Of a DNA stretch of 64,000 nt, positions 1 to 58,275 are shown in pieces. Every line of letters starts with the position of its first letter. The stretch's first letter is position 1. The notes under the pieces are model-generated. The model saw only the letters and a program-made list of their open reading frames with translations, was not told the origin of the DNA and searched no databases. Source of the stretch: Elusimicrobiota bacterium (lineage in GTDB: Bacteria > Elusimicrobiota > Elusimicrobia > FEN-1173); assembly GCA_016715645.1 (NCBI GenBank), contig JADJZR010000008.1, forward strand, positions 48,241 through 112,240. The letters run 5' to 3'. The translations under genes were made by a program, and so were the position numbers.

Positions 1-1248
1 GCCAGGGGAGGGACCATTTTTCTCGGGGTTAACGATGAAAGTCAAATTATCGGCGAAAAGCTCACCAACCGGATGAAAGCGGAAATTCTGTCCCTGGCGA
101 GAAAGTGTGAACCGCCGGTGCCCCTCTCAAAAATTTCGCAGATCGGCAAGACGGTCGCTATCGAGGTGTCGGAGGGTCCGAAGAAACCTTACAGTTGCTC
201 CTCCGGCTATTTTCGCAGATTGGACGCGGTGACTCAAAAGATGACCCATGAGGAAGTGGGTCTTTTGTTCAGGAACGCCGATGAACTCTCGTTTGAGGAG
301 CGGCCTTGCCGGGACGTCTCCTGGACCGACATTTCAGAGGAAAAAATTAAAATTTTTTTCGAAGAAGCCGGAATCCATGCGGGAGAAAGAACCCCGCGGG
401 ATATTTTGACCAGTCTCAATCTCGCGTCGAAAGAAGGCATCAAAAACGCGGGCGTTCTTTTCTTTGCCCGAGAACCCCGACGTCCTCTGTTGCAATGCGA
501 AGCGATCCTTGTTTCTTTCAAGGGCACGAAGGGCGTGGATATTTTGGACCGAAAAGACATACAAGACGACCTCCGGACCCAGTATCAAGAGGCCATGGTT
601 TTTTTAAAACGGCATTTAAGCGTCAGAACCAATATCCAGGGGTTCGATCGCAAAGATTACTACGAAATCCCTCTGGAAGCGTTGCGCGAGGCGGTGGCCA
701 ACGCCGTCATTCATCGGGACTACGGGGTGCGCGGGACGAGCTTGATGGTGGAAGTTCACGAGGACCGGGTGGTGATCAAAAATCCGGGGGGGTTTCCAGC
801 GGGCATGAGCCGGCAGAAAATCGGAGATCTCTCGGTGCGGCGCAACGAATTGATCGCCGACATGTTTGCCCGCATGCACCGGGTGGAACGCATGGGTTCC
901 GGATTTAAGCGGATTCGCGAAAGCATGGAAAAGGCCGGGTTGCCCTTCCCTAAGATATCCAGCAACGGTTTTTTCATTATTGAATTTGCCAGGCCCCCGC
1001 TGGCTGAGCAGGCCGGGAATCAAAGTTCGGTGAAAAGTTCGGTGAAAAGTTCGGTGAAAATTGTTGATCTCATCCGCCAATACAAGGACATAACAATTCC
1101 TGTGATGGCGGAAAGATTAAATTTGACAACACGCGCTGTTGAAAAACAACTGGAGAAATTGCAGACGACCGGCCGTGTCCGCCGTGTGGGTCCCGACAAG
1201 GGGGGGCATTGGGTAATTACGGAGATTAAAGGTAGTGAAAACACGTGA
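1..1248 (+). CDS. Schlafen/AlbA_2 + HATPase_c_4 + C-terminal wHTH protein (COG2865, often annotated RecG-like transcriptional regulator); 5' end lies outside the window
   Basis: The reading frame is open from base 1 and joins ORF 73..1248. Motifs present: GTIFLGVNDES (AlbA_2), ALREAVANAVIHRDYGVRGTSLMVEV (HATPase_c_4), and a C-terminal HTH-like segment. An in-frame SSVKx3 tandem repeat occurs near the C-terminus. Confidence 0.7.
   Translation, partial: ARGGTIFLGVNDESQIIGEKLTNRMKAEILSLARKCEPPVPLSKISQIGKTVAIEVSEGPKKPYSCSSGYFRRLDAVTQKMTHEEVGLLFRNADELSFEERPCRDVSWTDISEEKIKIFFEEAGIHAGERTPRDILTSLNLASKEGIKNAGVLFFAREPRRPLLQCEAILVSFKGTKGVDILDRKDIQDDLRTQYQEAMVFLKRHLSVRTNIQGFDRKDYYEIPLEALREAVANAVIHRDYGVRGTSLMVEVHEDRVVIKNPGGFPAGMSRQKIGDLSVRRNELIADMFARMHRVERMGSGFKRIRESMEKAGLPFPKISSNGFFIIEFARPPLAEQAGNQSSVKSSVKSSVKIVDLIRQYKDITIPVMAERLNLTTRAVEKQLEKLQTTGRVRRVGPDKGGHWVITEIKGSENT
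1024..1059 (+). repeat. Perfect 12-nt x3 in-frame tandem repeat (agttcggtgaaa) encoding SSVK-SSVK-SSVK
   Basis: Read directly from the sequence; it lies inside the COG2865-like CDS. Confidence 0.9.
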
Positions 1249-1728: not shown

Positions 1729-2250
1729 ATGAAACCCCATTCAGGCTATATTCGATTGCTTAAGGCCATAGAAGGGACCAATGCCCACATGGCTGGTCGC
1801 GTTGCGACTGTGGTCAATCAGGCTCTGACCCTGCGGAATTGGCTGATCGGATCTCATATAGTGGAATATGAACAGCATGGTTTAGATCGGGCGAGATATG
1901 GAGTTCGGTTGCTGGATCGACTCTCCAAAGATCTGAAAAAGAAAGGGGTCCGCGGTCTGGATGTTCGTGCGCTGAGGGACTGTCGGTTGTTCTTTCGTTT
2001 CTATCCTCAAATTCGGGGGTCAGTGACCCCCGAATTGGTGGTCCCGCCACACCTAACGGCATTACTGAACCACTGCAGTGAAAAAGACCAGACCGTTGTT
2101 GAATTCACAACGGCTGGGATGGACAACAAGCTGTTTGTGTCCCGATATCAAACCTCCCTCCCATCGGTTGACCAGTTAAAAAAACTAGTGGAAGCCGATC
2201 GTGCCCAATTGAAATATAGTGGACCCTCTGTGAAGGGGAACCTCCCATGA
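1729..2250 (+). CDS. DUF1016 (YhcG) N-terminal-domain protein; short form that lacks the PDDEXK nuclease half
   Basis: Pattern ...VNQALTLRNWLIGSHIVEYEQHG..RARYGVRLLDRLSKDL...GLDVRALRDCRLFFRFYP resembles the YhcG N-terminal domain. At 173 aa it is about half of a full-length DUF1016 protein. Confidence 0.45.
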   Translation: MKPHSGYIRLLKAIEGTNAHMAGRVATVVNQALTLRNWLIGSHIVEYEQHGLDRARYGVRLLDRLSKDLKKKGVRGLDVRALRDCRLFFRFYPQIRGSVTPELVVPPHLTALLNHCSEKDQTVVEFTTAGMDNKLFVSRYQTSLPSVDQLKKLVEADRAQLKYSGPSVKGNLP

Positions 2251-2612
2251 ATCGGGTTTCAAATTCAACACACCAATCCCCCTCCACCGCCCTGTTCGAA
2301 TCCCTGTCCGAATCGCGGATCTCTGTCCTTTATCTGGCCCGCCGGGCCAAAGAAACCAAGGACATGGCCCTGGCCAAAGAATTAACCGAAAAAGGTCAAT
2401 CGCTCAAAATTGAAATGGCCAGAATTCGCCGAACACTCACTGTCGAATGGACCAAAGAGGCCGCCGCCCTTCTGAAACGCTCAAAAACCGCCCAATCCGA
2501 ACTGGCCAAACATGTGGCGGACGCGGAAAAAAGCGCCCGGAAAACAAAGGCCCTCGCCCGGGCCCTAACCGCTGTGTCAAAGGTCCTTGCGCTCGCGAAA
2601 AAGGTTCTTTGA
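2247..2612 (+). CDS. Hypothetical small alpha-helical protein, paralog B of the duplicated pair
   Basis: About 50% amino-acid identity to ORF 1245..1718, with a near-identical ~70-nt 5' segment. Its stop overlaps the next start (TGATG). Confidence 0.5.
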   Translation: MNRVSNSTHQSPSTALFESLSESRISVLYLARRAKETKDMALAKELTEKGQSLKIEMARIRRTLTVEWTKEAAALLKRSKTAQSELAKHVADAEKSARKTKALARALTAVSKVLALAKKVL

Positions 2613-3838
2613 TGGAATCCACGGACTTTCTCATCGTCGGCGCCGGAATCGTGGGGCTGGCCGTAGCCAATGAGTTACGTCGACGCCACCCCAAAGCCAA
2701 CATCGTCGTTTTGGAAAAGGAAACGGAAGTGGGTTGCCACGCCAGTGGCCGAAACAGCGGGGTGTTGCACTCGGGTATTTACTATTCGCCGGGGACACTC
2801 AAGGCGAAATTTTGCGCGGAAGGCGCCCGCCGAATGTTGGCGTTCGCTAAAGAAAATGGTGTGGCCCATCGCGTGGCGGGGAAAGTGATTCTCGCTGTCG
2901 GACCGGAAGACCTCCCCGGACTGGAGCGGTTGGAACAAAACGCCAAAGCCAACGGGATTCGCGCCGTCCGTTTGTCCGCCCAAACACTCATGGAGATCGA
3001 ACCCCACGCTACGCCAGGAGAAGCGATCCATTGTTTGGACACCGCGGTGGTGGACGCCCCGGCCGTGGTGCAAGCGTTGGCCGAAAAAGTGGAATTAAGC
3101 GGAACTCGTTTTTTCTTTGGCGAAGAGGTGATCGAGGCAGAAGAAACCGCGGTAATAACGCGTTCTGGTCGAAAGTTGAAATTTGAAAAGATGATTAATT
3201 GTGCGGGCGCCCACGCGGATAAAGTGGCCAGGCTGTTCGGCCTGGCCAAGGATCATATTTTGGTTCCCTTCAAAGGGCTCTATTGGAAACTGCGTAATGG
3301 GGCCGACCATTGGGTTCGCGAAAGCATCTACCCTGTTCCGGACCTCAATTTTCCGTTTTTAGGCATTCACCTGACCCGCGGCGTGGGGGGCGACGTCTAC
3401 GTGGGCCCCACCGCCATTCCCGCTTTCGGAAGGGAAAATTATGGACTGCTGGAAGGAATCACCCCTGGCGAAAGCGCTCAAATAATGGGACGATTAACGA
3501 AAATGTATTTCCAAAAAGACCCCACGTTTCGACGACTGGTCAACCGTGAGATGGGTCATTACGTGAAAACCGGTTTTCTCAAAGCGGTTCAACGTTTGGT
3601 GCCCGCTCTTTCGGTGGAAGATCTGGTCCCATCGAACAAAGTCGGCATCCGCCCTCAACTGGTCCGCCGTACCGGTGAACTGGAAATGGATTTCCATATG
3701 GAACAGACCGACAATTCGTTGCATGTGTTGAACGCGATTTCACCGGCGTTCACCTGTTCCCTCGCCTTTGCCGAAAAAATCGTTGACGAGGTGGAGAGAC
3801 AAGGCGGTGAAGTCAAAGAAGAGGTCAAGGTCGCATGA
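2612..3838 (+). CDS. FAD-dependent oxidoreductase, L-2-hydroxyglutarate oxidase (LhgO/YgaF)-like
   Basis: ATG at 2612 (MESTDFLIVGAGIVGLAVANEL, an FAD-binding GxGxxG). CHASGRNSGVLHSGIYYSPGTLKAKFC closely matches the LhgO family. The upstream in-frame extension of ORF 2447 is probably not translated. Confidence 0.65.
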   Translation: MESTDFLIVGAGIVGLAVANELRRRHPKANIVVLEKETEVGCHASGRNSGVLHSGIYYSPGTLKAKFCAEGARRMLAFAKENGVAHRVAGKVILAVGPEDLPGLERLEQNAKANGIRAVRLSAQTLMEIEPHATPGEAIHCLDTAVVDAPAVVQALAEKVELSGTRFFFGEEVIEAEETAVITRSGRKLKFEKMINCAGAHADKVARLFGLAKDHILVPFKGLYWKLRNGADHWVRESIYPVPDLNFPFLGIHLTRGVGGDVYVGPTAIPAFGRENYGLLEGITPGESAQIMGRLTKMYFQKDPTFRRLVNREMGHYVKTGFLKAVQRLVPALSVEDLVPSNKVGIRPQLVRRTGELEMDFHMEQTDNSLHVLNAISPAFTCSLAFAEKIVDEVERQGGEVKEEVKVA

Positions 3839-4467
3839 GAAAAAATAAAAGGCCCGTTTGGAAAAACCCCACCGGTCGTCACGCCATGAGTTTCCTCGTG
3901 AACTTGGAAGAGATTGAAAAAGAGTTCCAGGTGACGAACAAACACAAAAAGCCGCTCTCGCTCGTGGACGGGTTTGCCCAAGCGATGGGCTTGATGGTGG
4001 ACGCCGCGCGCCGGAATAAGAAGCTCATTTTTGTGGGAAACGGGGGAAGCGCCGCGATTGCCAGTCACCAAGCCGTGGATTTTTGGAAGAACGGGGGAAT
4101 TAAAGCCCTGACGTTTAATGACGCAAGTCTTTTAACGTGCCTAGGGAATGACTGCGGTTATGAGAACGTTTTTTCCGAGCCGGTGCGCCGATTCGCCGAG
4201 TCGGGGGATGTGGTGTTGGCCATCAGCAGTTCGGGTCGTTCGCCCAATATTCTCAACGCCGTCACCGCAGCCCGTTCGGTGGGGAGCCGTGTTATTACTT
4301 TCTCAGGATTTACCGGTGACAATCCTCTTCGGAAAATGGGTGACGTGAACTTTTTCGTTCCCGTGCGGGCTTATGGGTTGGTGGAAGTCAGTCATCTCAT
4401 CCTGATCCATGCCATGTTGCGGGAAATCATCTACATCAATCCTCATGTGAAGAAATCGGGATATTGA
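3835..4467 (+). CDS. gmhA: SIS-domain sedoheptulose-7-phosphate isomerase (GmhA-like)
   Basis: Matches the GmhA/DiaA SIS family: KLIFVGNGGSAAIASHQAVDF, VVLAISSSGRSPNILNAV, ITFSGFTG. The ATGA overlaps the upstream stop; an alternative start is the Met at 3886. Confidence 0.65.
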   Translation: MRKNKRPVWKNPTGRHAMSFLVNLEEIEKEFQVTNKHKKPLSLVDGFAQAMGLMVDAARRNKKLIFVGNGGSAAIASHQAVDFWKNGGIKALTFNDASLLTCLGNDCGYENVFSEPVRRFAESGDVVLAISSSGRSPNILNAVTAARSVGSRVITFSGFTGDNPLRKMGDVNFFVPVRAYGLVEVSHLILIHAMLREIIYINPHVKKSGY

Positions 4468-5471
4468 GGAACAATGTGATAAAAAAAGCGGTCGTCACCG
4501 GCGGGTTGGGGTTTATCGGAAGCCACCTTGCGGAAGCTCTATTGGCTCGGGAGATTCAAACGACCATTGTTGACAACGCCTCCACCGGTCGACACGAAAA
4601 CATTCGCACGTTCGCGAACCACCCTCTCCTGACGGTCCTCCAGGCGGACGTGGCTTCTGACGATTTGGCGGGAGGGTTTGGCAACGCCGACGTTGTTTTT
4701 CACTTGGCCGGGTTGGCGGACATCGTTCCTTCGATCCAGCGTCCCATGGATTATTGCCGGACCAACATCACGGGAACGTTGCGTGTTTTGGAAGCGGCCC
4801 GGCAGGCCAAAGTCTCCCGTGTCGTCTATGCCGCCTCCTCGTCCTGCTATGGCCTCCCCGACATTTTTCCAACACCGGAGACCGCCCCCATCCGTCCCCA
4901 ATACCCCTACGCGCTCTCGAAGTGGATGGGCGAAGAGGCCGTGCATCATTGGGGGCGTGTCTACGGTCTAAAAACCACGTCGCTTCGACTTTTTAATGTG
5001 TACGGGCCCCGTTCCCGCACGACCGGAGCCTACGGCGCCGTTTTTGGTGTTTTTCTGGCCCAAAAGCTGGCAGAGAAACCGCTAACCATTGTTGGAGATG
5101 GAACCCAACAGCGAGATTTTATTTATGTCTCAGATGTGGTGGAGGCGTTCCTGGCCGCTGGAGAATCGACTTTGTCAAGGGAAGTTTTTAATGTGGCGGG
5201 GGGAAACCCGGTTGCGGTGAACACGCTGGCCGGTTTGGTGGGAGGTTCTCGGGTGGAAATTCCAAAACGTCCCGGAGAACCGGATGTGACGCACGGGGAC
5301 ATCACAAAAATTAAATCGGCCTTGGGCTGGGCGCCGCGCGTGTCGTTTGAGCAAGGGGTCGCCCGGGTCATGGCGCGTCTGGACGATTGGCGGAATGCCC
5401 CCGTGTGGACCCCCGCGTCGATAGCGGAAGCCACGGCGGATTGGTTTGCCCATTTGGGCAAGGGGAAATAA
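4464..5471 (+). CDS. NAD-dependent sugar epimerase/dehydratase (extended SDR)
   Basis: VVTGGLGFIGSHL Rossmann motif, YxxxK (YPYALSK), typical WcaG-like length. Confidence 0.75.
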   Translation: MRNNVIKKAVVTGGLGFIGSHLAEALLAREIQTTIVDNASTGRHENIRTFANHPLLTVLQADVASDDLAGGFGNADVVFHLAGLADIVPSIQRPMDYCRTNITGTLRVLEAARQAKVSRVVYAASSSCYGLPDIFPTPETAPIRPQYPYALSKWMGEEAVHHWGRVYGLKTTSLRLFNVYGPRSRTTGAYGAVFGVFLAQKLAEKPLTIVGDGTQQRDFIYVSDVVEAFLAAGESTLSREVFNVAGGNPVAVNTLAGLVGGSRVEIPKRPGEPDVTHGDITKIKSALGWAPRVSFEQGVARVMARLDDWRNAPVWTPASIAEATADWFAHLGKGK

Positions 5472-6994
5472 TGGACTCAAAAAAAATTATGGAGTTGGAT
5501 GCGTTGGCACTACAAGTTACGGACTGGAAACGGCAGGGCAAACGGGTGGTGCAGTGCCACGGCGTCTTTGACCTGTTGCACGTGGGGCATATTCGCCATT
5601 TAAATGAGGCCAAACGGTTCGGAGACTATTTAATCGTCACGCTGACCCCCGACCATCTCGTGAACAAAGGCCCCCATCGCCCTGCGTTTCCCCAACATCT
5701 CCGGGCAGAGGTGATGGCGGCTCTGGACGTGGTGGACGGTGTTGCGATCAATCGATGGCCCTCTGCGGTGGAATCCATCGGCCTTCTCAAACCAAACGTC
5801 TACGCCAAGGGGCCGGACTATCGAAAGGCGTCGGACGACGTCACGGGCGGAATTCTCCGGGAAGAAGAGGCCGTCCGCGCGGTGGGGGGCGAAATCCGTT
5901 TTACCGATGACGTGACGTTTAGTTCATCCAGCCTGGTCAATCTCCATTTAGATCTGCTTCCCCCGGAAGTCAAATCGTTCCTGGATGGTTTCCGTAAGAA
6001 ATACACAAAGGACGATATTTTCCGCTACATCGAAAGTCTTAAGGGTTTGCGGGTTGCGGTGGTGGGAGAAACCATTTTGGATGAGTATGTTTATTGTGAA
6101 GCCATGGGGAAATCTTCCAAAGAACCCACTTTGGCTGTACTTCGCCGGTCCCAGGAATTATTCGCGGGGGGGGCTTTGGCCATTGCCAACCATCTGGCGC
6201 AATTCTGCTCGGAAGTAGAGGTGATCACCTATTTGGGCGAACGGGATTCACAGGAAGAATTTGTCCGGAAAAGCCTGAATCCGCGCGTGCGGCTGACGGC
6301 CGTGAAAAAGCCGGGAGCCCCCACCATTGTCAAACGTCGCTACGTGGAGTCGTATCTTTTGTCAAAAATGTTTGAAGTCTATGATATGGACGACGAGGCC
6401 CTGACGGGCATTGCGGAAAATTCACTTTGCCAAGCAATGGAGTCTTCTTTTTCTAAAGTCGATGCGGTTCTTGTGGCCGATTATGGGCACGGTCTCATGA
6501 CGTCTAAGGCGGTGGCCCTGGCCTGTCAAAAGGCGCCTTTTCTGACGGTCAATACCCAGATCAACGCCGCCAACATCGGATTCCATGCCATTTCCCGCTA
6601 TCCCAAAGCGAACCATGTGTGTATCCAGGAATCTGAGCTGCGGTTGGAATACCGAAGTCGCCGGGGCCCCGTCAATGCCATGGTAACCGATCTGGAACGT
6701 CGTCTTGCGTGCGAGCGGATAACGGTGACCCGCGGCAGAGCGGGTATTCTGGTCCATGACCAGAAAGGTGATTTCCATCAATCTCCTGCCTTTGCCGTTA
6801 AGGTTTTGGATCGGATTGGGGCGGGAGACGCGGTTCTTGCGCTCACGTCCCTTTGCGCCGTGGCTGGCGTTCCGCCGGACGTTTCGGCGTTCCTGGGCAA
6901 TCTGGCGGGCGCCCAAGCGGTCACGATCATCGGCAACAAGACTTCCATTGATAAGGCGCTCCTTTTAAAAGCCGCCGAAGCCATGCTGAAATAA
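5471..6994 (+). CDS. hldE: Bifunctional heptose-7-phosphate kinase / heptose-1-phosphate nucleotidyltransferase (HldE/RfaE-like) with reversed domain order
   Basis: The N-terminus is a cytidylyltransferase-fold domain (VVQCHGVFDLLHVGHIRHLNEAKRFGDYLIVTLTPD, the RfaE domain-II signature). The C-terminus is a PfkB/ribokinase-like kinase (DRIGAGDAVLA). ATG at 5471 directly follows the upstream stop. Confidence 0.7.
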   Translation: MDSKKIMELDALALQVTDWKRQGKRVVQCHGVFDLLHVGHIRHLNEAKRFGDYLIVTLTPDHLVNKGPHRPAFPQHLRAEVMAALDVVDGVAINRWPSAVESIGLLKPNVYAKGPDYRKASDDVTGGILREEEAVRAVGGEIRFTDDVTFSSSSLVNLHLDLLPPEVKSFLDGFRKKYTKDDIFRYIESLKGLRVAVVGETILDEYVYCEAMGKSSKEPTLAVLRRSQELFAGGALAIANHLAQFCSEVEVITYLGERDSQEEFVRKSLNPRVRLTAVKKPGAPTIVKRRYVESYLLSKMFEVYDMDDEALTGIAENSLCQAMESSFSKVDAVLVADYGHGLMTSKAVALACQKAPFLTVNTQINAANIGFHAISRYPKANHVCIQESELRLEYRSRRGPVNAMVTDLERRLACERITVTRGRAGILVHDQKGDFHQSPAFAVKVLDRIGAGDAVLALTSLCAVAGVPPDVSAFLGNLAGAQAVTIIGNKTSIDKALLLKAAEAMLK

Positions 6995-7080
6995 GGAGCC
7001 CCTTTTTTTCCTTCCCCTCTTGGGGGAAGGTGCCCCAAAGGGTCGGATGAGGGGAGGAATTTTTTCTTTAAGGAGTTAAA

Positions 7081-8082
7081 ATGGTTCGATTCAAAAAAAT
7101 TTTGGTCACTGGTGGAGCTGGCTATGTTGGTTCGGCCCTTGTGCCGGCCCTGCTGAAAGTCGGCTACACCGTGCGCGCGCTGGACTTGTATTTGTACGGC
7201 GACCCCTTAAAAGACGTCGCAACGAACCCCCAACTCGAACAGGTGAAAGGCGACCTCCGGGACCAGGTTGTTTTAGACAAAGCCGTCCAGGGCTGTGACG
7301 CGGTGATTCACTTAGCGTGTGTTTCCAACGATCCCAGCTTTGAATTGGATCCCGCTCTCGGAAAGTCCATCAACTACGACGCTTTCTTCGGACTCATGAA
7401 GGCCGTGCGAAAAGCCAGGGTTCAGCGGTTGATCTATGCGTCCAGTTCCAGCGTGTATGGTTTGCGGGAAGAACCGGATGTGCGCGAGGAAACCCCCTGC
7501 ACTCCTTTGACAGATTACTCGAAGTACAAGCTGATGTGCGAAGACGCGTTGCGCGCCGACGGCCTGGGCGGAGCGGAATACGTCATTGTTCGACCAGCCA
7601 CGGTCTGCGGCTACGCCCCGCGCATGCGGTTGGACCTTTCCGTCAATATCCTCACCATCCATGCCCTGGTCAAAAAACAGATCACTGTGTTCGGTGGCAG
7701 TCAACTTCGCCCCAACATCAATATTCTGGACATGGTGGACGTCTACAAGCTTTTGTTAGAGGCCCCAAAAGAAAAAATTCAGGGGGACGTTTTTAACGCG
7801 GGGTATGAGAACCTTTCCCTCTCTCGTATCGCTGAGATGGTCAAAAACCAACTCCAAGACCCGACCATCACCATTAAAGTGGAACCCACCAACGATCTGC
7901 GTTCCTATCACGTGAACTCCGACAAAATCGCCCGAATCCTGGGTTTCCGCGCGCGCCATACTGTCGAACAGGCGATTGAAAGCATTCACAAGGCTTTTCA
8001 GGAAGGAAAATTCCAAGACCCTCTGACGAACCCTCTTTATTACAACATCAAAACCATGCAACAGGCGAAGCTCGGGGGCTAA
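7081..8082 (+). CDS. NAD-dependent sugar epimerase/dehydratase (extended SDR)
   Basis: ILVTGGAGYVGSAL, YASSSSVYG, YxxxK (YSKYK). Confidence 0.75.
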   Translation: MVRFKKILVTGGAGYVGSALVPALLKVGYTVRALDLYLYGDPLKDVATNPQLEQVKGDLRDQVVLDKAVQGCDAVIHLACVSNDPSFELDPALGKSINYDAFFGLMKAVRKARVQRLIYASSSSVYGLREEPDVREETPCTPLTDYSKYKLMCEDALRADGLGGAEYVIVRPATVCGYAPRMRLDLSVNILTIHALVKKQITVFGGSQLRPNINILDMVDVYKLLLEAPKEKIQGDVFNAGYENLSLSRIAEMVKNQLQDPTITIKVEPTNDLRSYHVNSDKIARILGFRARHTVEQAIESIHKAFQEGKFQDPLTNPLYYNIKTMQQAKLGG

Positions 8083-8954
8083 TGGCATCTCCGGTTGACA
8101 TCGAAGCGTTGGATCTTAAGGCCTTGGCCCGGACCATCCGAGGCGACGTCATCGATATGTCCCACCGGGCAGAAACAGCCCATCTGGGGGGATCCCTTTC
8201 GGTGGTGGATATTTTGGTGGCGGCGTACTGGGGAGTTCTTTCTTTAGACCCGAAGGACCCCCTCGCCCCCGATCGGGATCTATTTATCTTTAGCAAGGGC
8301 CACGCCATCAGCGCTTTCTATTCTACGCTGGCCCACCGGGGTTTTTTCCCGATCCCCCTGCTGGAAACGTTTGCCGTTTCCGGTGGATCTCTTCCCGAAC
8401 ACCCCAGTCCTTCGTGTGTCCCCGGCCTAGAGTTCGCCACAGGGTCCCTCGGCCATGGGTTACCCGTTGGCCTTGGGATGGCCTGGGCCGCCCGGCGGCA
8501 GGGTCGTCTTTCGCGCGTGTTCGTCGTGATTAGCGACGGAGAAGCCAACGAGGGGTCCGTCTGGGAAGCCGCCCTTCTGGCGCCCGCCCAAAAGCTCGGC
8601 AACCTGGCGGTCATTGTCGATTACAACAAATGGCAAGCCACGGGCCGTAGCCACGAAGTGATGGCCCTTAATCCCCTAAAAGAAAAATGGCAATCCTTCG
8701 GCTGGAACGCGGTGGAGGTGGACGGACACGACATTCCCGCTCTGGTCGACGCTCTGAACAAACATCCCTATCATTCCTCCCAACCGTTGGCGATCGTGGC
8801 CCACACGGTGAAGGGGAAAGGTGTTTCTTTCATGGAAGATGACAACAACTGGCATTACCGCATTCCCACTGCCGATGAGGTCCGCCGGGACCGAGCGTTT
8901 TGTCCAGGAGGCCGAAAATTTGTGGAACTCGGGCCCTGGGCCAACCGGGGGTGA
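8082..8954 (+). CDS. Transketolase, N-terminal (ThDP/pyrophosphate-binding) subunit
   Basis: GHLGGSLSVVDILVAAYW, ISDGEANEGSVWEA and the GDG-like ThDP motif. Split form of about 290 aa. Confidence 0.8.
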   Translation: MASPVDIEALDLKALARTIRGDVIDMSHRAETAHLGGSLSVVDILVAAYWGVLSLDPKDPLAPDRDLFIFSKGHAISAFYSTLAHRGFFPIPLLETFAVSGGSLPEHPSPSCVPGLEFATGSLGHGLPVGLGMAWAARRQGRLSRVFVVISDGEANEGSVWEAALLAPAQKLGNLAVIVDYNKWQATGRSHEVMALNPLKEKWQSFGWNAVEVDGHDIPALVDALNKHPYHSSQPLAIVAHTVKGKGVSFMEDDNNWHYRIPTADEVRRDRAFCPGGRKFVELGPWANRG

Positions 8955-9880
8955 GAAATGCTTTCGCAAGTGAAATAACGGCGCTCGCTAAAAAGGACGA
9001 GCGGGTCGTCCTGGTGTCCGGCGATATCGGGAACCGGTTGTTTGACGAGTTCAAAATCGCAGCGCCCGGCCGGTTCGTCAACGCCGGCGCCGCCGAAGGA
9101 AACATGATCGGTTTGGCGGCCGGGATGGCTTTAAGCGGACTGCGCCCGGTCGTCTACACCATAAACTCATTTCTTACAACGCGCTGCTATGAGCAGATTC
9201 GCGTCGATCTATGCTACCACAACCTACCCGTGGTCCTAGCGGGAGTGGGCGCTGGACTGAGTTACGCGTCCTTGGGGGCCACCCACCATTCTCTGGAAGA
9301 CGTGGCGGCTCTTCGGGTCCTCCCCCGCATGGCGGTGGTTTGTCCAGGCGATCCGTTGGAGGTCCGTCTGGCGTTGCGCGCGGCTCTCCAACAGGAGGGC
9401 CCCGTCTTCATTCGAATGGGCAAAAAAGGGGAACCTCCGGTCCATGTCGAGCCACCCCCTTTTGCCATCGGCCGTGCCATTGTCGTCAAACCGGGAAACA
9501 GAATCTGCTTGCTTGGCAACGGGCACATCCTTTCAATGGTCATGAAAGCGGCCGACATTTTAGAGCAAAAGGGCGTCTCAACCCAAGTTGTCAGTTTTCA
9601 CACCGTAAAACCATTGGACAAAGAATTCCTTCAAGACGCATTCAAGCGGTTTCAGTTGGTGGCGACGGTGGAGGATCACGGCGTCCTGGGGGGCTTGGGG
9701 GGAAGCGTGGCGGAATGGTTGGCGGATCACCCTTCCCCGGCTCGCCTATGCCGGATCGGTACCCCCGACGAATTTTTGATGGAGACCATCGACAACGAAT
9801 CCGCTCGGCATCGGTGTGGCCTCACCCCCGACTCTGTGGCGGCCAAGGCGCTCGCGGCCCTGGCCCCCGAAACGGTTTAA
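8951..9880 (+). CDS. Transketolase, C-terminal (pyrimidine-binding) subunit
   Basis: GTG at 8951 overlaps the upstream stop (GTGA). VRNAFASEITALAKKDERVVLVSGDIG... is a typical split-transketolase C-subunit. Confidence 0.75.
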   Translation: MRNAFASEITALAKKDERVVLVSGDIGNRLFDEFKIAAPGRFVNAGAAEGNMIGLAAGMALSGLRPVVYTINSFLTTRCYEQIRVDLCYHNLPVVLAGVGAGLSYASLGATHHSLEDVAALRVLPRMAVVCPGDPLEVRLALRAALQQEGPVFIRMGKKGEPPVHVEPPPFAIGRAIVVKPGNRICLLGNGHILSMVMKAADILEQKGVSTQVVSFHTVKPLDKEFLQDAFKRFQLVATVEDHGVLGGLGGSVAEWLADHPSPARLCRIGTPDEFLMETIDNESARHRCGLTPDSVAAKALAALAPETV

Positions 9881-10486
9881 ATGCGCGTGGGAATAGATTT
9901 CGACAACACGCTGGTTTGTTGCGCACCCCTCTTTCATCGGGTTGCCCTGGAGCGGGGTCTTGTACCTCCCCATCTGCCCGCCACAAAGGACGCGGTGCGA
10001 AATTACTTGATGGATCTAGGGCGCGAAACAGATTGGACGGAACTACAGGGAACCGTCTACGGTCCACGTCTTTGTGAAGCGCTTCCTTTCCCAGGGGCAA
10101 GGGAGTTTGTGGTTCTGTGTCGCCAAAAAAATATCCCTGTGGGTGTGGTCAGCCATAAGACGCGCCACGCCTTGTGTGGTCCGGCCCACAACCTTCACGA
10201 TGCGGGGTATCGTTGGCTGGAGAGCGCTGGTTTTTTTGACCAGGATGTTATATCACGGGACCAGGTTTTTTTCGAGCCATCGCGAGCGGCCAAATTGAAC
10301 CGAATCCGCGCTTTGGGCTGTTCGCATTTTATTGACGATTTGAGAGAGGTCTTTTCTGAGCCACGCTTTCCCGTTGAAGTAAAAAAGTGGCTATTCGATC
10401 CGGATTCTTCCCAAAAGGGATCGAAGGACACCCGTTCTTTTTCGACCTGGGTCCAGCTTTCTGGGGCTCTCGAAGAAGACTTTTAG
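9881..10486 (+). CDS. HAD-superfamily phosphatase (possible heptose-bisphosphate phosphatase analogue)
   Basis: N-terminal GIDFDNTLV (DxDxT/V HAD motif I). Its start abuts the transketolase stop. Confidence 0.55.
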   Translation: MRVGIDFDNTLVCCAPLFHRVALERGLVPPHLPATKDAVRNYLMDLGRETDWTELQGTVYGPRLCEALPFPGAREFVVLCRQKNIPVGVVSHKTRHALCGPAHNLHDAGYRWLESAGFFDQDVISRDQVFFEPSRAAKLNRIRALGCSHFIDDLREVFSEPRFPVEVKKWLFDPDSSQKGSKDTRSFSTWVQLSGALEEDF

Positions 10487-10487
10487 A

Positions 10488-11534
10488 ATGACGCCCGGTG
10501 AAGTCGCTTCAGCCGTCTCCCGGGCCACGGGCGAGCGTCCCAAAGAGGTCGTTCTTTTAAAAGGCGTCGGGAACAATGTGGTGGCAAAGGTGAACATGGC
10601 CGCTGGTACTCGGGTCGCAAAAATCTATTTTCGTCACCCGGCCGACCCCCGGGATCGTTTGGGAACCGAATATGACATGTTGACGTTTTTGTGGGAGGCC
10701 GGGGTTCGCCGGGTTCCCCAGCCCTATGGGATGTTTCGCGACGACTCTTTGGGGCTTTATGAGTTCATTGATGGAGTTCCGTTGGCTCCCGGCGGCGTCA
10801 CATGGAAAGAGGTAGAACAGCTCATATCGTTTTTGGGGGAAATGTATAATTGCAAGGGTCGTCCAGGAGCGCAGAGACTGCCGACCGCTTCGGAGTATGC
10901 CCCTTCGTTGGCGGATTACCGGGAAAACGTTTCCCGACGATTTCAGCGTTTGCGACAAGGGATCGACCCAAAAATGGAGCCGACAGCAGCCGATTTCGTG
11001 AACGGCCCGCTCTTCCGGGCCCATGAAGACCTGGCCCGTTTTCTGGCGAATTGGTCGAAAGTGGGGATGAATCTTGACGACGTGTTGGATCCAGCCCAGC
11101 GAACGTTAAGTCCGGCTGATCACGGGTTTCAGAACACGCTGGCGCGAAACGGACAGTTGGTGTTTCTGGATTTTGAATACGCGGGGTGGGACGATCCAGC
11201 CCAGGTGATTGCCAACGCCTGCCTGCACCCGGCGGTGCCCATGCCGACGGCTTTTGTTCCTCGATTTGTCGAGGACCTGTCGGAACGGCTGAGGGGAGGG
11301 CTCGCGTTTCGAAGACGTTTACGGTGTCTTTACCCCCTGCTGGCGTTCAAATGGAGTCTCATCATGCTGAACGAGTTTCTTCCCGTAGACCGTGACCGAC
11401 GTGCGTTTACGGGGGCGGATGTGGAGTTGAAAAAAGGAATCCAGTTAAAAAAGTCAATTCTTCAACTGGATAAGGTCAAAGAAGCTCTGGCCGACGATTT
11501 TTTTCTCAAGGAGATGGTTCATGGAACAAATTGA
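10488..11534 (+). CDS. Aminoglycoside-phosphotransferase-fold (APH/ChoK-like) kinase, likely a sugar kinase
   Basis: HGFQNTLARNGQLVFLDFEYAGWDD matches the Brenner HxDhxxxN...D motif of the APH family. Confidence 0.6.
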   Translation: MTPGEVASAVSRATGERPKEVVLLKGVGNNVVAKVNMAAGTRVAKIYFRHPADPRDRLGTEYDMLTFLWEAGVRRVPQPYGMFRDDSLGLYEFIDGVPLAPGGVTWKEVEQLISFLGEMYNCKGRPGAQRLPTASEYAPSLADYRENVSRRFQRLRQGIDPKMEPTAADFVNGPLFRAHEDLARFLANWSKVGMNLDDVLDPAQRTLSPADHGFQNTLARNGQLVFLDFEYAGWDDPAQVIANACLHPAVPMPTAFVPRFVEDLSERLRGGLAFRRRLRCLYPLLAFKWSLIMLNEFLPVDRDRRAFTGADVELKKGIQLKKSILQLDKVKEALADDFFLKEMVHGTN

Positions 11535-12183
11535 TTTTATTCAAGCGCTCAATAAATCGACCAAACGCGACTACGTGGGCCGAGTGACGGAGTTCCCGAA
11601 GCCAGAGGCGGCGAAAATCGCCAAGCAATACGGAAAAGACTATTGGGATGGGGACAGAAAGTTCGGTTATGGGGGATACAAATACGATGGTCGATGGCTC
11701 CCGCTGGCCCAAACCATCGCCAAACACTATGGGATAAAAGCAGGCGACAAAATTCTTGATGTGGGGTGTGGCAAAGGATTTTTGCTTTACGAGTTCACCC
11801 GAGCGGTTCCTGGCGTGCAGGTCGCGGGCATCGATATTTCCACTTACGCCATTGAAAACGCCAAGGAGGAGGTTAAGCCGTTCCTGAAAGTGGGGAACGC
11901 CGTCAAACTCCCCTTCGCAGACAAAACCTTCGATTTTGTCTATTCCAACACGACATTCCACAATCTCCATAACTACGAACTTTTTGATGCGGTAAAGGAA
12001 GTCGAGCGCGTAGGGAAAAAAAACAAATACCTTTGCGTCGAATCCTACCGGAACGACGAAGAAAAAGCCAACTTACTGTATTGGCAACTCACCTGCGCCA
12101 GTTTCTATACCCCCCACGAGTGGGCGTGGTTCTATAAACTGTGCGGATACACAGGGGATTATGGTTTCATATACTTTGAGTAA
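11521..12183 (+). CDS. Class I SAM-dependent methyltransferase
   Basis: ILDVGCGKGFLLYEF (motif I), followed by a Methyltransf_11-like core. Confidence 0.65.
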   Translation: MEQIDFIQALNKSTKRDYVGRVTEFPKPEAAKIAKQYGKDYWDGDRKFGYGGYKYDGRWLPLAQTIAKHYGIKAGDKILDVGCGKGFLLYEFTRAVPGVQVAGIDISTYAIENAKEEVKPFLKVGNAVKLPFADKTFDFVYSNTTFHNLHNYELFDAVKEVERVGKKNKYLCVESYRNDEEKANLLYWQLTCASFYTPHEWAWFYKLCGYTGDYGFIYFE

Positions 12184-12186
12184 CCT

Positions 12187-12261
12187 ATGAAATTCAACGT
12201 CGCCGTCCTTGTCGAGAGCAGGGAGCCTAATGTCATCAAAGATTTTGAGAAACCACGATGA
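12187..12261 (+). pseudogene. 24-codon remnant of an MDR alcohol-dehydrogenase N-terminus (MKFNVAVLVESREPNVIKDFEKPR*)
   Basis: Close match to the N-terminus of the intact dehydrogenase at 13843 (MKFKAAVLVESRNPLVIEELE). It is terminated by TGA, which overlaps the ATG of the next gene. Confidence 0.5.
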
Positions 12262-13712
12262 AGGTCAAACGCGCTCTAAAACGAAATGTTTCCTCCCCTC
12301 CGTCGCTTTTAGAAAATCTGCAGGCTTGGGTGCGTTTAGGGGAGTCTGAAATTTTGGAGTTTAAACGCACGACAAATGAACGGAGAGAGGCTGTTCGCTC
12401 GCTTTGCGCAATGATCAACCATCGAGGGGGACGTGTGTTGTTCGGAGTTTCCTCTGCCGGAGAGATCCTCGGGCAGCAGGTCAGTGATCGCACCATTGAA
12501 GAATTGGCGCAAGAAATCAAGGAGATCGACCCCCCTGTTTTTCCATCCATCGAACGCATTGTCGTTTCCCGGGAGCGGGAAGCAATCGCCGTAACCGTTT
12601 TACCCGGGCCGTCAGGTCCCTACACCTACAAAGGGCGCGCCTATCGGCGCGTGGGGAACGCGAGTCTCGCGATGTCGAAGGATGAATGCAATCGTATTTT
12701 ACTCGAACGATTGCATGGCCAGAGCCGCTGGGAAAATCAGTTGTTGGAAGAATGGTCCGTCAAAGATTTGGACATTGGCGAAATCACGCGGACCATTGAC
12801 GAGTCCGTGCGCCGCGGTCGATCTGAGGATCCAGGCACGCGAGACCCCGAGATTATTCTTCGCGGGCTTGGCCTCATGAAAGGGAAGCGTCTTTTTCGAG
12901 CCGCCGCCGTTTTATTTGGCCGTCGCGACCTCCTCGCAGCGGAGTATCCCCAATGCCTCCTTCGGGTCGCTCGGTTTCGCGGGTCAGACAAGACAGTTTT
13001 CGTTGATAACCGTCAGTTTCAAGGCAACGTGTTTGACTTATTGTCCCATGCGGAGAGATTCCTGCGCGATAATTTGCCCGTCGCGGGGCGCGTGCTCCCA
13101 GGCCTTTTTGAACGAGTGGATGATCCTCTGTACCCTTCTCTTGCCTTGCGTGAATCTCTGGCCAACGCTTTTTGCCATCGGGATTACAGCATGGGGGGCG
13201 GCTCGGTTTCGCTCGCTGTTTATGACGACCGATTGGAGATCACGTCTTCAGGCCCTCTGCATTTTGGGCTCACAGAGGAAATGCTGTTCCTTCCACACGA
13301 ATCCCTTCCCTGGAATCCCCTGATCGCAAGGACCTTCTATCGGCGGGGCATCATTGAATCCTGGGGACGCGGCACTTTGAAAATGGCCGAGTTAATGCAC
13401 GCCGCCGGTCTTCCCCACCCGGAAATTGTTGAGGCCAGTGGATGCGTTATCGTTCGATTCCGACCGAAAGAGAGCCTCCCTCTTCATGCATCGGGGGACT
13501 TAAATGCGCAACAAAAAAATATAATCGCCCTCATCGTGGCCACCCCCATCGGGCTTTCGTTGCGTGACATTCGGAAAGGGATCCCATCCTCTCCGCCTGT
13601 GTGGAAACTGAAAAGGGAACTGGAGACGTTGAAAAATCTAGGCAAACTCGCGACGCGCGGGCGTGGCCTCGGCGCTCGCTGGCTCCTCCGAAAGGAGCCG
13701 AACGCCCCATGA
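12258..13712 (+). CDS. Schlafen/AlbA_2 + HATPase_c_4 + wHTH protein (COG2865), paralog of the gene at 1..1248
   Basis: ESEILEFKR (AlbA_2); ALRESLANAFCHRDYSMGGGSVSLAVYDDRLEITSSGPL (HATPase_c_4); C-terminal wHTH-like region. Confidence 0.7.
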   Translation: MKVKRALKRNVSSPPSLLENLQAWVRLGESEILEFKRTTNERREAVRSLCAMINHRGGRVLFGVSSAGEILGQQVSDRTIEELAQEIKEIDPPVFPSIERIVVSREREAIAVTVLPGPSGPYTYKGRAYRRVGNASLAMSKDECNRILLERLHGQSRWENQLLEEWSVKDLDIGEITRTIDESVRRGRSEDPGTRDPEIILRGLGLMKGKRLFRAAAVLFGRRDLLAAEYPQCLLRVARFRGSDKTVFVDNRQFQGNVFDLLSHAERFLRDNLPVAGRVLPGLFERVDDPLYPSLALRESLANAFCHRDYSMGGGSVSLAVYDDRLEITSSGPLHFGLTEEMLFLPHESLPWNPLIARTFYRRGIIESWGRGTLKMAELMHAAGLPHPEIVEASGCVIVRFRPKESLPLHASGDLNAQQKNIIALIVATPIGLSLRDIRKGIPSSPPVWKLKRELETLKNLGKLATRGRGLGARWLLRKEPNAP

Positions 13713-13715
13713 GCA

Positions 13716-13762
13716 CCAATGGCGCTCCAATGCGCTCCAATGGCGCTCCAATGCGCTCCAAT
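13716..13762 (+). repeat. Tandem repeat, roughly 21-nt unit (ggcgctccaatgcgctccaat) x2, with 10/11-nt sub-periodicity
   Basis: Read directly: ccaatggcgctccaatgcgctccaatggcgctccaatgcgctccaat, immediately 3' of the COG2865 paralog. Confidence 0.85.
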
Positions 13763-13842
13763 AACTTCAGGGGAGCACATCGGACGAAAGTTCCTGACCA
13801 CTTTCAATCCCTCGGTTTTAACTCCAATTATTTCATCCACCC

Positions 13843-14889
13843 ATGAAATTTAAAGCCGCCGTCCTCGTCGAAAGCCGCAACCCCCTCGTCATCGAGGAGC
13901 TCGAAGTCCCGGTCCTAAAATATGGCCAGGTCCTCGTGAAAATTATTTGCAGTGGCATCTGCGGAGCCCAAATCAACGAAATCGATGCCGTGAAAGGTCC
14001 GGACAAATTTCTCCCCCACCTGTTGGGCCATGAAGCGACAGCGGAAGTTGTGGACTGCGGCGAAGGCGTGACCACGGTAAAACCGGGCCAGCGGGTGGTC
14101 TGTCACTGGCGCAAAGGCGCGGGCCTCCAATCCCCCACACCCCAATACAAATCAAAGTTGGGCCTTGTGAATGCCGGTTGGGTGACCACGTTTAGCGAAT
14201 ACTCGGTGGTTTCTGAAAATAGACTAACACCAGTTTCCAGGGATTTGGACCCAGAAATTGGCGCTCTCATGGGGTGCGCCATCACCACAGCCATGGGCGT
14301 CATCAACAACGATGCCCGTTTGGGCATTGGAGAATCGATTGTTGTATTTGGAGCAGGCGGCGTAGGCCTGAGCATAATTCAATTTGCCGCCCTGGTGGGG
14401 GGCTATCCCATCGTTGCGATTGACCTGCATGAAAATAAACTCGAATTGGCAAAGAGTCTCGGCGCAACCCACACGTTCAAAGCCGGGGCCATTGACCTGG
14501 ACGAGGAAATCCGCAATATTGTCGGCACCGCTGGGGCAGACGTGGCCATCGAAAACACTGGGAACGCCGACGTTATTGAGATGGCCTACGCCCTGACAAA
14601 TGGGAAAGGAGGCCGCACGATTTTGGTGGGCGTCCCCCCTGTGACGGCCCGCCGCCCCAGCATCTACACCCTCCCTCTCCATTTCGACAAGGTACTCAAA
14701 GGAAGCGAAGGCGGTCATTGTCGACCCGAATCCGACATCCCGAAACTCCTGAAGCTTTGCCAAGTGGGTCGAGTTCGTTTCAATGGGCTGGTGGGGGTGC
14801 GATATCCGTTGGGTCGAGTCAATGACGCCTTGTTAGATCTTCGTTCTGGGCGTATTCCGGGCCGGTGCCTTCTTATGATGGGGCAGTGA
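13843..14889 (+). CDS. Zinc-dependent medium-chain dehydrogenase/reductase (alcohol/sugar dehydrogenase)
   Basis: GICGAQINE... and GHEATAEVVDCGEGV (Zn ligands); FGAGGVGLS Rossmann motif. Confidence 0.75.
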   Translation: MKFKAAVLVESRNPLVIEELEVPVLKYGQVLVKIICSGICGAQINEIDAVKGPDKFLPHLLGHEATAEVVDCGEGVTTVKPGQRVVCHWRKGAGLQSPTPQYKSKLGLVNAGWVTTFSEYSVVSENRLTPVSRDLDPEIGALMGCAITTAMGVINNDARLGIGESIVVFGAGGVGLSIIQFAALVGGYPIVAIDLHENKLELAKSLGATHTFKAGAIDLDEEIRNIVGTAGADVAIENTGNADVIEMAYALTNGKGGRTILVGVPPVTARRPSIYTLPLHFDKVLKGSEGGHCRPESDIPKLLKLCQVGRVRFNGLVGVRYPLGRVNDALLDLRSGRIPGRCLLMMGQ

Positions 14890-14924
14890 CGTGATTCAAT
14901 TTTTTTAAAAAGCGAATATTACCA

Positions 14925-55405: not shown

Positions 55406-56395
55406 ATGTTCGTCAGACTCAATCGCAACTCTCAGGGCAAAGCCTACCTCCAATTCGTCCGCAGTTATCGAGAGGGGGGCAAGGTCCGTCAACAGATTCT
55501 CTTGACGTTGGGTCGGTTGGATGTTCTTCAATCGACGGGGCAAATTGACAACCTCGTGGCGGCGTTGGGACGATACGCCACGAGGGAAAAGCTGGTGGAC
55601 CTGAGCAAAGACATCTCCGTTGATCAGGTCTATTTTCTGGGTGCGGCGCACGTGGTGAGCCGGATGATGGAACGGCTGAAACTGACGGCGATGTTTACCC
55701 GATTGAGGGCGAAGCATCCGAAGATGAAGTTGCCCTGGGTAGGGATTATCACCGGGATGATTGTGAGTCGATTTATCGCGCCGTGCTCGAAACGGCGGCT
55801 GAACATGGAACAGTGGGGGCGAATCTATCCCGGGATTTTGGAAATGGAGGCGCCGCCCCTGAAAAGTTTTTACCGAGCGATGGACGTGTTGTGGAAACAT
55901 CGGGAGGACGTTGAGGGAGCCCTGTTTGACCGCGGGGGCCAGCGGGATCTTTTCAACCGCGGGTTGGACGTCGTTTTTTACGATTTAACGACACTGCGTT
56001 TTGAAAGCACCAACGCGACGGACGGGGAACTTCGACGGTTCGGGTATTCAAAAGAACACTGGAGCGATTGCACACAAGTGATCCTGGGCTTGTTGGTGGA
56101 CCGGGACGGGGTGCCGGTGGGCTACGAACTTTTCCCGGGCAACACGTATGAACCTCACAGCTTGCCGAAGATTCTGGAGAAGATGAAAACGAAGTATCAC
56201 ATCGAACGCGTGATCGTGGTGGCAGATCGGGGGTTGGTGACGCAGGAGAACGTCGGGGAACTGAGCAAGAACGGGATGGATTTCATTCTGGGGATGAAAT
56301 TGTGGTCGATGTCGGAGGCCGATCAGGACCAAGAAAATCCGATAAAACCGTTCCTTAGAGGGAAAAGGAGACCCGCTGCTTCACCAAATTGGTGA
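55406..56395 (+). CDS. IS1634-family transposase, N-terminal ~60% only (truncated/disrupted)
   Basis: MFVRLNRNSQGKAYLQFVRSYREGGKVRQQILLTLGRL is the hallmark IS1634 N-terminus. The ORF ends prematurely where the IS1380-like element begins. Confidence 0.65.
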   Translation: MFVRLNRNSQGKAYLQFVRSYREGGKVRQQILLTLGRLDVLQSTGQIDNLVAALGRYATREKLVDLSKDISVDQVYFLGAAHVVSRMMERLKLTAMFTRLRAKHPKMKLPWVGIITGMIVSRFIAPCSKRRLNMEQWGRIYPGILEMEAPPLKSFYRAMDVLWKHREDVEGALFDRGGQRDLFNRGLDVVFYDLTTLRFESTNATDGELRRFGYSKEHWSDCTQVILGLLVDRDGVPVGYELFPGNTYEPHSLPKILEKMKTKYHIERVIVVADRGLVTQENVGELSKNGMDFILGMKLWSMSEADQDQENPIKPFLRGKRRPAASPNW

Positions 56396-58242: not shown

Positions 58243-58275
58243 TAACTGGTCAGACTAGTTTGTGGAGGGTGTGTT

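Follow-up and report, generated by a model that had tools for sequence, protein, structure and literature searches.

Prokaryotic Schlafen genes have been linked to defence and restriction by surveys (PMC13056530, PMC13462974 and bioRxiv 10.64898/2026.05.29.728809; here and below, we draw on the available passages of these sources), and the commonest architecture among them, a Schlafen domain followed by a GHKL ATPase (with or without a helix–turn–helix, HTH), accounts for 34% plus 19% of 5,930 proteins in one survey (PMC13056530) and for 58.6% of 103,533 proteins in the RzAgo preprint (bioRxiv 10.64898/2026.05.29.728809). The Schlatpase of RzAgo combines ATP-driven tetramerisation and tRNA cleavage with abortive infection (bioRxiv 10.64898/2026.05.29.728809); other characterised relatives are Cash (PMC13462974), and RorSlfn5 and EcoSlfn7 (PMC13056530). 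Schlatpases with a C-terminal HTH, as the preprint names them, correspond to the pSlfn-HisKinase-HTH class of PMC13056530. Here, we describe two genes of this class, gene 1 and gene 2, in a 64-kb stretch of DNA (the window) from an Elusimicrobia metagenome-assembled genome (MAG), the source being indicated by 100% NCBI protein matches for gene 2 and for the dehydrogenase downstream of it. Both are ordinary members of this recently described, very large prokaryotic Schlafen family, and what follows leaves their classification unchanged. The features worth keeping are a fast-changing repeat linker and a swapped tail in the family of gene 1, and a recurrently used operon junction that holds gene 2. 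In the Schlafen survey passages covered by a limited search, which is no proof of novelty, there is no mention of a 12-nucleotide (nt) repeat linker, of tail swapping between near-identical cores or of insertion into a glycan operon.

1..1248, + strand: gene 1, encoding a Schlafen(AlbA_2)–GHKL ATPase–winged helix protein (Pfam; homologs at 48–74% identity; AlphaFold2, AF2, model of the homolog P0121; Foldseek)
12258..13712, + strand: gene 2, encoding a Schlafen(AlbA_2)–GHKL ATPase–winged helix protein of 484 amino acids (aa) (Pfam; alignment; 100% match to an NCBI Elusimicrobia MAG protein)

The domain call of the first-pass annotation, made from the sequence alone, is confirmed for both genes by Pfam. 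Gene 1 matches HATPase_c_4 (E 3.9e-21) and SLFN_AlbA_2 (E 1e-05, 26.5 bits), the latter over profile positions 31–117 only, the C-terminal two thirds, because the window cuts the N-terminus: 415 codons are visible and, judging by 447-aa homologs, ~32 are lacking at the 5' end. Its residues 353–405 give sub-threshold matches to HTH_11, HTH_69 and HTH_24. Gene 2 matches SLFN_AlbA_2 (E 2.9e-17, 63.7 bits against a cut-off of 25.3) and HATPase_c_4 (E 2.2e-17), and BLASTP pairs its C-terminus with the gene 1 winged helix. NCBIfam holds no family for either protein. In the AF2 model of P0121, which is 74% identical to gene 1 (mean predicted local distance difference test score, pLDDT, 84.6), the N-terminal domain matches human SLFN11–14 structures in Foldseek, and the tail matches MarR/ArsR/Zalpha-type winged helices in structure and profile searches. 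The nuclease motif of gene 2, E29-SEIL-E34-F-K36 (Ex4(E/D)xK), is intact and invariant in 31 aligned sequences, as is, within its family, the GHKL N-box (E299/N303). The corresponding motif of gene 1 falls upstream of window base 1, and its residues are read from relatives only, where E14-GLTV-E19-F-K21 is nearly invariant. The Bergerat N-box reads REAVANAVIHRDY in gene 1 and RESLANAFCHRDY in gene 2, with the E and N invariant in the alignments.

The likeness to Schlatpase-HTH proteins is thus one of architecture (PF04326 and PF13749, then a short winged helix), of motifs (Ex4(E/D)xK and the GHKL N-box) and of distribution, with patchy horizontal spread and an association with restriction. The Schlafen and GHKL domains are also homologous to the N-terminal part of SLFN-pAgo (RzAgo of Runella zeae), and PADLOC returns the pAgo model PDLC02394 at 7.5e-14 and 2.4e-08. 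Identity with SLFN-pAgo can be rejected: these matches span only model positions ~60–424 of 1121, and the window proteins end in a winged helix, lack the PAZ/MID/PIWI core and measure 447–484 aa against >1,070 aa, so that the sensor would be the winged helix and not a guide-loaded Argonaute. The only solved structure that matches over the full length is DIP2311 of Corynebacterium diphtheriae (PDB code: 3LMM; Foldseek E 1e-23, profile E 5e-14), although it is only ~20% identical, longer (583 aa) and an uncharacterised structural-genomics entry.

The two genes had been called paralogous, and they are indeed homologous, aligning over 439 columns (BLASTP, E 2e-36). The identity is only 27%, however, and each has relatives in other phyla that are 60–74% identical to it; they therefore represent two old subfamilies (families 1 and 2 below) rather than recent duplicates, and would be paralogous in the superfamily sense only.

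1022..1060, + strand: 12-nt tandem repeat, 3.2 copies of the unit AAAGTTCGGTGA, encoding SSVK three times (Tandem Repeats Finder, TRF; translation)
1000..1245, + strand: tail module of gene 1, comprising a variable linker, the tetrapeptide repeat and the winged helix, and beginning right after the core motif FFIIEFARP (delimited by the uncoupling of core and tail identity)

The SSVK repeat of gene 1 exemplifies a 12-nt repeat linker that runs through the whole subfamily. Its copies match at 100%, are in frame (peptide SSVKSSVKSSVK) and sit immediately before IVDLIRQ, the first helix of the winged helix. Of 20 aligned family 1 proteins, almost all have a tetrapeptide repeat at the same position, with units as different as SSVK, SEKS, GVNE, KVTE, LGVK and GSQK, among others. 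Among the 120 listed homologs of gene 1, a repeat with a period of 4 or 8 aa at residues ~370–400 is the best internal repeat in about 100, and the same scan finds such a repeat in none of the 120 listed homologs of gene 2; copy number spans 2 to 8 across the family 1 proteins. The DNA tells the same story, with a 12- or 24-nt tandem repeat at nt ~1120–1250 in 16 of 17 family 1 genes, in arrays of 2.8 to 8.2 copies matching at 83–100%.

Over short time spans, units are added to the linker and lost from it. The homologs P0130 and P0135 agree at each of their 447 shared residues, and two extra units, an 8-aa insertion or deletion within the repeat, are all that sets them apart. Moreover, tails of the same type within single 90%-identity clusters differ in length by four-residue steps (95/99/107, 90/94 and 91/95). 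Both tandem repeats that had been noted in the window are present by TRF, and the repeats were proposed to vary the copy number of the C-terminus; units of the first do come and go between family 1 proteins that are >90% identical, but they do so in a linker inside the protein and not at its end. As the unit is 12 nt, copy changes keep the reading frame. A phase-variable contingency gene, switching by frame or by promoter spacing, can be ruled out on these grounds, since the variants differ by steps of 4 or 8 aa and remain full length. Neither the 12-nt unit nor the 21-nt unit found beyond gene 2 (see below) recurs elsewhere in the 64 kb beyond chance in a motif search, and Rfam gives no match at either repeat.

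Different family 1 genes read a nearly identical 12-nt unit in different frames. The unit AAAGTTGGGTGA of locus L116, read as KLGE, is identical to that of the window (SSVK) at 11 of 12 nt; those of L109 (LGVK) and L124 (LGEK) match it at 10 of 12, and that of L111 (SEKS), which is read in the frame of the window, at 11 of 12. Under a composition-matched null, the probability of at least 10 matches at the best rotation is 5e-4. The simplest reading would be a frameshift with compensation, in a linker whose peptide sequence may be of little importance. In the AF2 model of P0121, the linker is of low confidence (residues 373–385, pLDDT <50), and the repeat runs into helix 1 of the winged helix (H381–397).

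The tail as a whole, linker and winged helix together, is swapped between nearly identical cores. Across the homologs, identity to gene 1 in the core (Schlafen and ATPase) is uncorrelated with identity in the winged helix (r = −0.24). The closest cores (P0122–P0124; 79–80%) carry tails that are 29–42% identical to that of gene 1 and have other unit types, whereas P0121 and P0126, with cores at 75% and 68%, share its SSVK-type tail at 62–67%. Within 90% clusters, five pairs have cores that are 90–96% identical and tails that are 27–45% identical (P0233/P0377, P0147/P0401, P0121/P0433, P0173/P0408 and P0235/P0412). P0401, in particular, has an SSVK-type tail like that of the window on a core that clusters with the GVNE-type P0147, and the window tail type (SSVK followed by IVDLIRQ...) recurs on different cores in P0121, P0126 and P0401. 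The switch point lies directly after the core motif FFxIxFxRP, and the exchanged unit is therefore the variable linker, the repeat and the winged helix. Orphan tail cassettes were looked for near family 1 genes as a source for switching and none were found, which suggests that the exchange occurs between genomes rather than by local shuffling. The pattern points to the tail as the part that may be under diversifying pressure, and near-identical cores with unrelated tails, together with the four-residue steps of the linker, give a concrete way into what the tail does. As a separate observation, the entire tail, repeat linker and winged helix included, is tandemly duplicated in three longer homologs of gene 1 (P0152, P0159 and P0181; 532–594 aa); in P0152, the tail shows ...SSEKILRAISDD... 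two times.

Gene 2 lies within a run of genes (2447–16154) that encode sugar-nucleotide and glycan enzymes according to Pfam, between a methyltransferase and a dehydrogenase:

11521..12183, + strand: S-adenosylmethionine (SAM) methyltransferase, upstream flank of the slot (Pfam; syntenic in L025, L026, L028, L189 and L192)
12187..12261, + strand: remnant copy of the 5' end of the dehydrogenase gene, an open 24-codon open reading frame (ORF) (direct repeat; tblastn; sequence reading)
13709..13762, + strand: 21-nt tandem repeat, 2.6 copies (TRF, 93% match), also describable as a 10/11-nt unit, GCGCTCCAAT(G), in 4.5 copies
13709..13846, + strand: putative 45-codon ORF over the spacer, MSTNGAPMRSNGAPMRSNNF..., containing the 21-nt repeat (translation)
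13843..14889, + strand: zinc-dependent dehydrogenase (ADH), intact, downstream flank of the slot (Pfam; orthologs at 74–84% identity)

The glycan operon is conserved in Elusimicrobia and is found with the same gene order in five related metagenomic lineages, whose dehydrogenases are 74–84% identical to that of the window, and the contents of the methyltransferase|dehydrogenase junction differ among them. In L028, it is empty (TAA-CCC-ATG; that is, the stop codon, 3 nt and the dehydrogenase ATG); in L025 and L026/L027, it holds a full-length DUF1016/YhcG nuclease gene, the L025 and L026 copies being 35% identical; in L189 and L191/L192, it holds a truncated DUF1016_N gene; and in the window, it holds gene 2. 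L189 and L191, whose ADHs are 70% identical overall, agree fully in the DUF1016_N product (170 aa) and in the opening 70 nt of the ADH gene, which points to recent homologous recombination having carried slot contents between operons. From these comparisons, the junction is a recurrently used slot, and the series (empty, YhcG, Schlafen) provides a natural before-and-after record of single-gene defence candidates entering operons. The YhcG/DUF1016 PD-(D/E)XK nucleases (PADLOC PDC-S02) resemble gene 2 in occupying the same slot in the sister operons and in being single-gene nuclease candidates, whereas their fold and family are unrelated to it. Inside the window slot, tblastn finds no YhcG remnants, and a 19-nt match (16/19) to the L189/L191 spacer is too weak to claim.

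Gene 2 was inserted at the start of the ADH gene with duplication of its first ~70 nt, and ADH was left intact. The insert is flanked by a 60–70-nt direct repeat of the ADH 5' end (73% identity, 1656-nt spacing). The upstream copy, which had been described as an ADH remnant, is genuine and shares 15 of 23 residues with the ADH N-terminus (tblastn E 4e-4); the accompanying idea that gene 2 had inserted into an older dehydrogenase gene is overturned, as the window ADH is full length (348 aa, 100% coverage, 78–84% identical to its orthologs) and what the junction carries is a duplicate of the first ~70 nt. Since the remnant is equally far (45–46 of 70 nt) from every ADH 5' end compared, it is either old or from a distant donor. 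A model in which gene 2 took the place of most of a second ADH gene has no support, as no ADH C-terminal remnant was found after gene 2. The 1.66-kb insert holds only gene 2 and two short ORFs, without a recombinase gene; the flanking direct repeat, at 60–70 nt and 73%, is not a short exact target-site duplication, and there are no convincing terminal inverted repeats.

The 21-nt array begins at the stop codon of gene 2 (TGA 13710–13712) and lies within the 130-nt spacer before ADH. The first-pass annotation had placed this second repeat at the 3' end of gene 2; it is outside the coding sequence and cannot vary the C-terminus. It has no comparators, and slippage in the junction spacer that the insertion created is its simplest explanation. 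The 45-codon ORF that contains it has no NCBIfam match, and the spacer and remnant ORFs are without homologs. The reading frames are closely packed: 3 nt separate the methyltransferase stop from the remnant ATG, and three ATGA stop/start overlaps join the remnant to gene 2, gene 2 to the 45-codon ORF and the 45-codon ORF to ADH. A promoter and terminator scan was at chance level overall, with nothing promoter- or terminator-like bracketing the insert, and, given this and the ATGA chain, gene 2 is probably expressed as part of the glycan operon. The insert would fit a promoterless passenger that uses the original start region of ADH, with the spacer ORF restoring the coupling of ADH itself.

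The filled slots of the window, L189 and L191 share a motif, TTYAACTCCMATTRTTTCA, 8–10 nt upstream of the ADH ATG (window 13816–13834, L189 ~3981–3999, L191 ~4973–4991); it is identical at 16 of 19 nt between the window and L189/L191 (shuffle p about 0.01) and weaker in L026 and L025. CCAAT is frequent in the slot spacers (six in 130 nt in the window; four in 143 nt in L026), and the empty site of L028 has no spacer. The motif may stem from an older insert, may signal a cassette end or may have arisen by chance.

A scan of one genome per species found >590 relatives of gene 2, of which 80 loci from >15 phyla were kept. hsdM, hsdS or hsdR genes lie within 10 kb in 38 of the 80, using profiles built from those loci; such counts of restriction–modification (R-M) genes are lower bounds, the HsdR profile having missed a truncated hsdR beside L109 that was later found by Pfam. 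The usual order is hsdM-hsdS-...-gene-hsdR, with the gene 130–540 nt upstream of hsdR. Two orthologs of gene 2 (P0102 and P0100; 62–63% identity; Limisphaerales and Planctomycetota) are each flanked by hsdS and hsdR in a type I operon, and the Planctomycetota locus also carries Kiwa genes and an Abi_C gene. Several loci without hsd genes adjoin type III, type ISP, DISARM-like or AbiEii-type genes: the 19 flanking genes from 16 such loci include type III Res, type ISP enzymes, a DEAD+MZB helicase, an AbiEii-like ATPase, a PLD-helicase and DUF499, and also a DegT aminotransferase, a methionine synthase-like gene and a sulfatase. The gene 2 family is thus strongly linked to restriction systems, and the copy in the window, a solitary one, is not. 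The defence link that had been drawn from Schlafen-like ATPases in general holds for these orthologs; neither copy in the window is in an R-M operon. Restriction contexts were found and the gene 1 repeat varies among related sequences, contrary to an invariant repeat in housekeeping surroundings. An accessory gene embedded in a type I R-M operon, between hsdM/hsdS and hsdR, is likewise a candidate that gene 2 does not fit, since the 64 kb hold no hsd homologs.

In family 1, the closest core to gene 1 (at L109) lies between radC and hsdR, 30 nt upstream of that hsdR, and other members have varied neighbours. L118 carries one within a sugar operon; the P0147 gene adjoins bacA and a Fic gene; and the P0122 gene comes after a small HTH_17 gene. 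At L116 (10001–12976), a SNF2 helicase gene is followed by a family 1 gene and then, 88 nt downstream on the same strand, by a different Schlafen-ATPase gene (491 aa), so two subfamilies co-occur elsewhere too, in tandem rather than 11 kb apart. L113 (8549–12018), where a family 1 gene sits between a histidine kinase gene and that of its LuxR-type response regulator, is another insertion at an operon junction. A 40-nt gap separates the L113 gene from the preceding kinase ORF, and at the other end there is a 24-nt overlap between its matched coding region and the regulator ORF (stop-to-stop).

Taken jointly, these data are best explained, with fair probability, by both genes encoding stand-alone proteins composed of a Schlafen RNase, a GHKL ATPase and a winged helix, with gene 2 having entered a junction slot and gene 1 carrying a repeat linker within a swapped tail. 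The winged-helix tail would be the sensor or specificity part and the outcome would be growth arrest of the infected cell; by analogy with the characterised relatives, the activity is most likely ATP-gated tRNA cleavage triggered through the tail.

A number of points weigh against this proposal. A defence role for the stand-alone Schlafen–ATPase–HTH architecture would itself be assigned by analogy: the only two protective Schlafen genes in the available passages of PMC13056530 are a DUF262 fusion and an Ig-like fusion, and therefore no HisKinase-type fusion tested there in Escherichia coli protected. The glycine box is NPGG in gene 1 and TSSG in gene 2, so the ATP handling of the two proteins may differ. 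The 64-kb window has no homolog of hsdM, hsdS, hsdR, Kiwa or Abi_C, and the nearest defence candidates are a degraded YhcG gene beside gene 1 and an island at least 42 kb from gene 2. Gene 1 relatives are often in non-defence positions (a two-component operon, sugar operons, or beside BacA or ribonucleotide reductase genes). Additionally, the repeat variation was read among homologs only, and the putative co-transcription and translational coupling of gene 2 are read from sequence only.

Were the two proteins instead ordinary transcription regulators, as the old COG2865 annotation would have it, the winged helix would bind an operator, the ATPase would act as a ligand or energy switch and gene 2 would regulate its own glycan operon. 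The resemblance of the winged helix to MarR/ArsR/Lrp regulators favours this, as do the gene 1 relatives in two-component and sugar operons, the gene 2 relative beside a DegT aminotransferase and the ~30% of prokaryotic Schlafen genes that are without defence neighbours according to the passages of PMC13056530. We nevertheless judge it improbable: the nuclease triad, needless for a pure regulator, is invariant in family 2 and nearly so in family 1; gene 2 is dispensable to the operon, given that close relatives have an empty slot or one filled by an unrelated nuclease; and orthologs at 60–68% identity are spread over >15 phyla, mostly in restriction operons. A neutral origin for the repeats, which is also unlikely but deserves slightly more credence, would make them noise from slippage, within a disordered linker in gene 1 and within a junk spacer after gene 2, with the tail differences reflecting relaxed constraint. 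The low pLDDT of the linker (<50), the wide differences in unit between lineages and the reading of one DNA unit in two frames (SSVK and KLGE), by which the peptide is barely constrained, would all accord with this, as would a 21-nt repeat without comparators or family match. Yet, down to 48% identity, 16 of 17 genes and about 100 of 120 proteins share the location of a repeat whose period is exactly 12 or 24 nt, and neutral slippage is not expected to persist for that long; moreover, the tails have been replaced wholesale with their winged helices intact, which fits the exchange of functional modules and not decay.

The conservation of the unit across frames raises the further idea that the 12-nt repeat acts as DNA or RNA, for example as an internal array of ribosome-binding or start sites that would also yield a free winged-helix protein, or as a recombination signal for tail exchange. 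Units that are 10–11/12 nt identical across frames, beyond what the null would give (P 5e-4 for at least 10 matches), are what it would call for, and the units do hold Shine–Dalgarno-like GGTGA or GGAG together with an in-frame GTG (window frame) or TTG (KLGx frame). However, the SEKS, KEKS, TTQK and EKPR units have no in-frame start codon, tails are exchanged at a boundary that precedes the repeat and directly follows the core motif, the neighbourhoods of the genes hold no orphan tail cassettes, and one frameshift with a compensating change in a tolerant linker explains both frames; we regard this idea as very improbable indeed.

Within our preferred reading, of Schlafen RNases gated by ATP and triggered through a winged-helix tail, the linker invites comparison with type I restriction enzymes. 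Type IC HsdS subunits (EcoR124I/II and NgoAV) reportedly carry tetra-amino-acid tandem repeats. The HsdS repeat lies in a helical spacer between two recognition domains and changes the recognised spacer length. The likeness is a 12-nt/4-aa, in-frame, variable repeat beside a DNA-recognition module that can be swapped, the genes being located in type I R-M operons or close to them; the protein family and fold are different, and for the gene 1 family any effect on DNA recognition is putative. We put forward, only tentatively and as a single joint claim that is itself doubtful, that, in the commonest class of Schlafen proteins in prokaryotes, the tail may be a fast-exchangeable, length-tunable specificity module, like the recognition domains and repeats of HsdS, that the repeat may be kept as a slippage-prone DNA ‘ruler’ conserved across frames, and that the nuclease genes may spread as promoterless passengers. 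Such passengers, of this kind and of the YhcG kind, may slot into the junctions of restriction, glycan and two-component operons and borrow the translation start of the host gene.

The remainder of the window adds the following. Between gene 1 and the sugar operon lies a further nuclease fragment:

1729..2250, + strand: degraded DUF1016/YhcG PD-(D/E)XK nuclease fragment (Pfam; PADLOC candidate PDC-S02; 39% identity to the L026 YhcG)

The fragment encodes 173 aa against 372–380 aa for the full-length protein, and is flanked by ORFs at 1245–1718 (157 aa) and 2247–2612 (121 aa). Pfam and NCBIfam give nothing for these two ORFs, nor does PADLOC for the 157-aa one, and the stretch 1249–2446 looks like decayed accessory DNA. 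At 3223–3276 (− strand), antisense within a FAD oxidoreductase gene, Rfam gives its only match, the Caulobacter small RNA CC0196, at 34.9 bits against a gathering threshold of 35 (E 1.3e-4), probably by chance. From 16000 to 54000, a long same-strand run of genes has a GC content of 44–50% against 53–59% in its flanks and includes an ABC exporter, an AMP-binding enzyme, an aminotransferase and several ORFs without a Pfam match; it probably represents a variable section of the glycan cluster, which may have been imported. Towards the far end of the window, GC climbs from ~48% to 55–62%, with a strong GC skew at 56–58 kb. The stretch 56389–63710 there looks like a small defence island, comprising a DDE transposase (56389–57924), a PADLOC PDC-S01 candidate (60186–61478, − strand, 1.3e-62) and weak JetA2/JetB2 matches (Wadjet type II, DUF2397/DUF2398) at 61484–63028 and 63018–63710.

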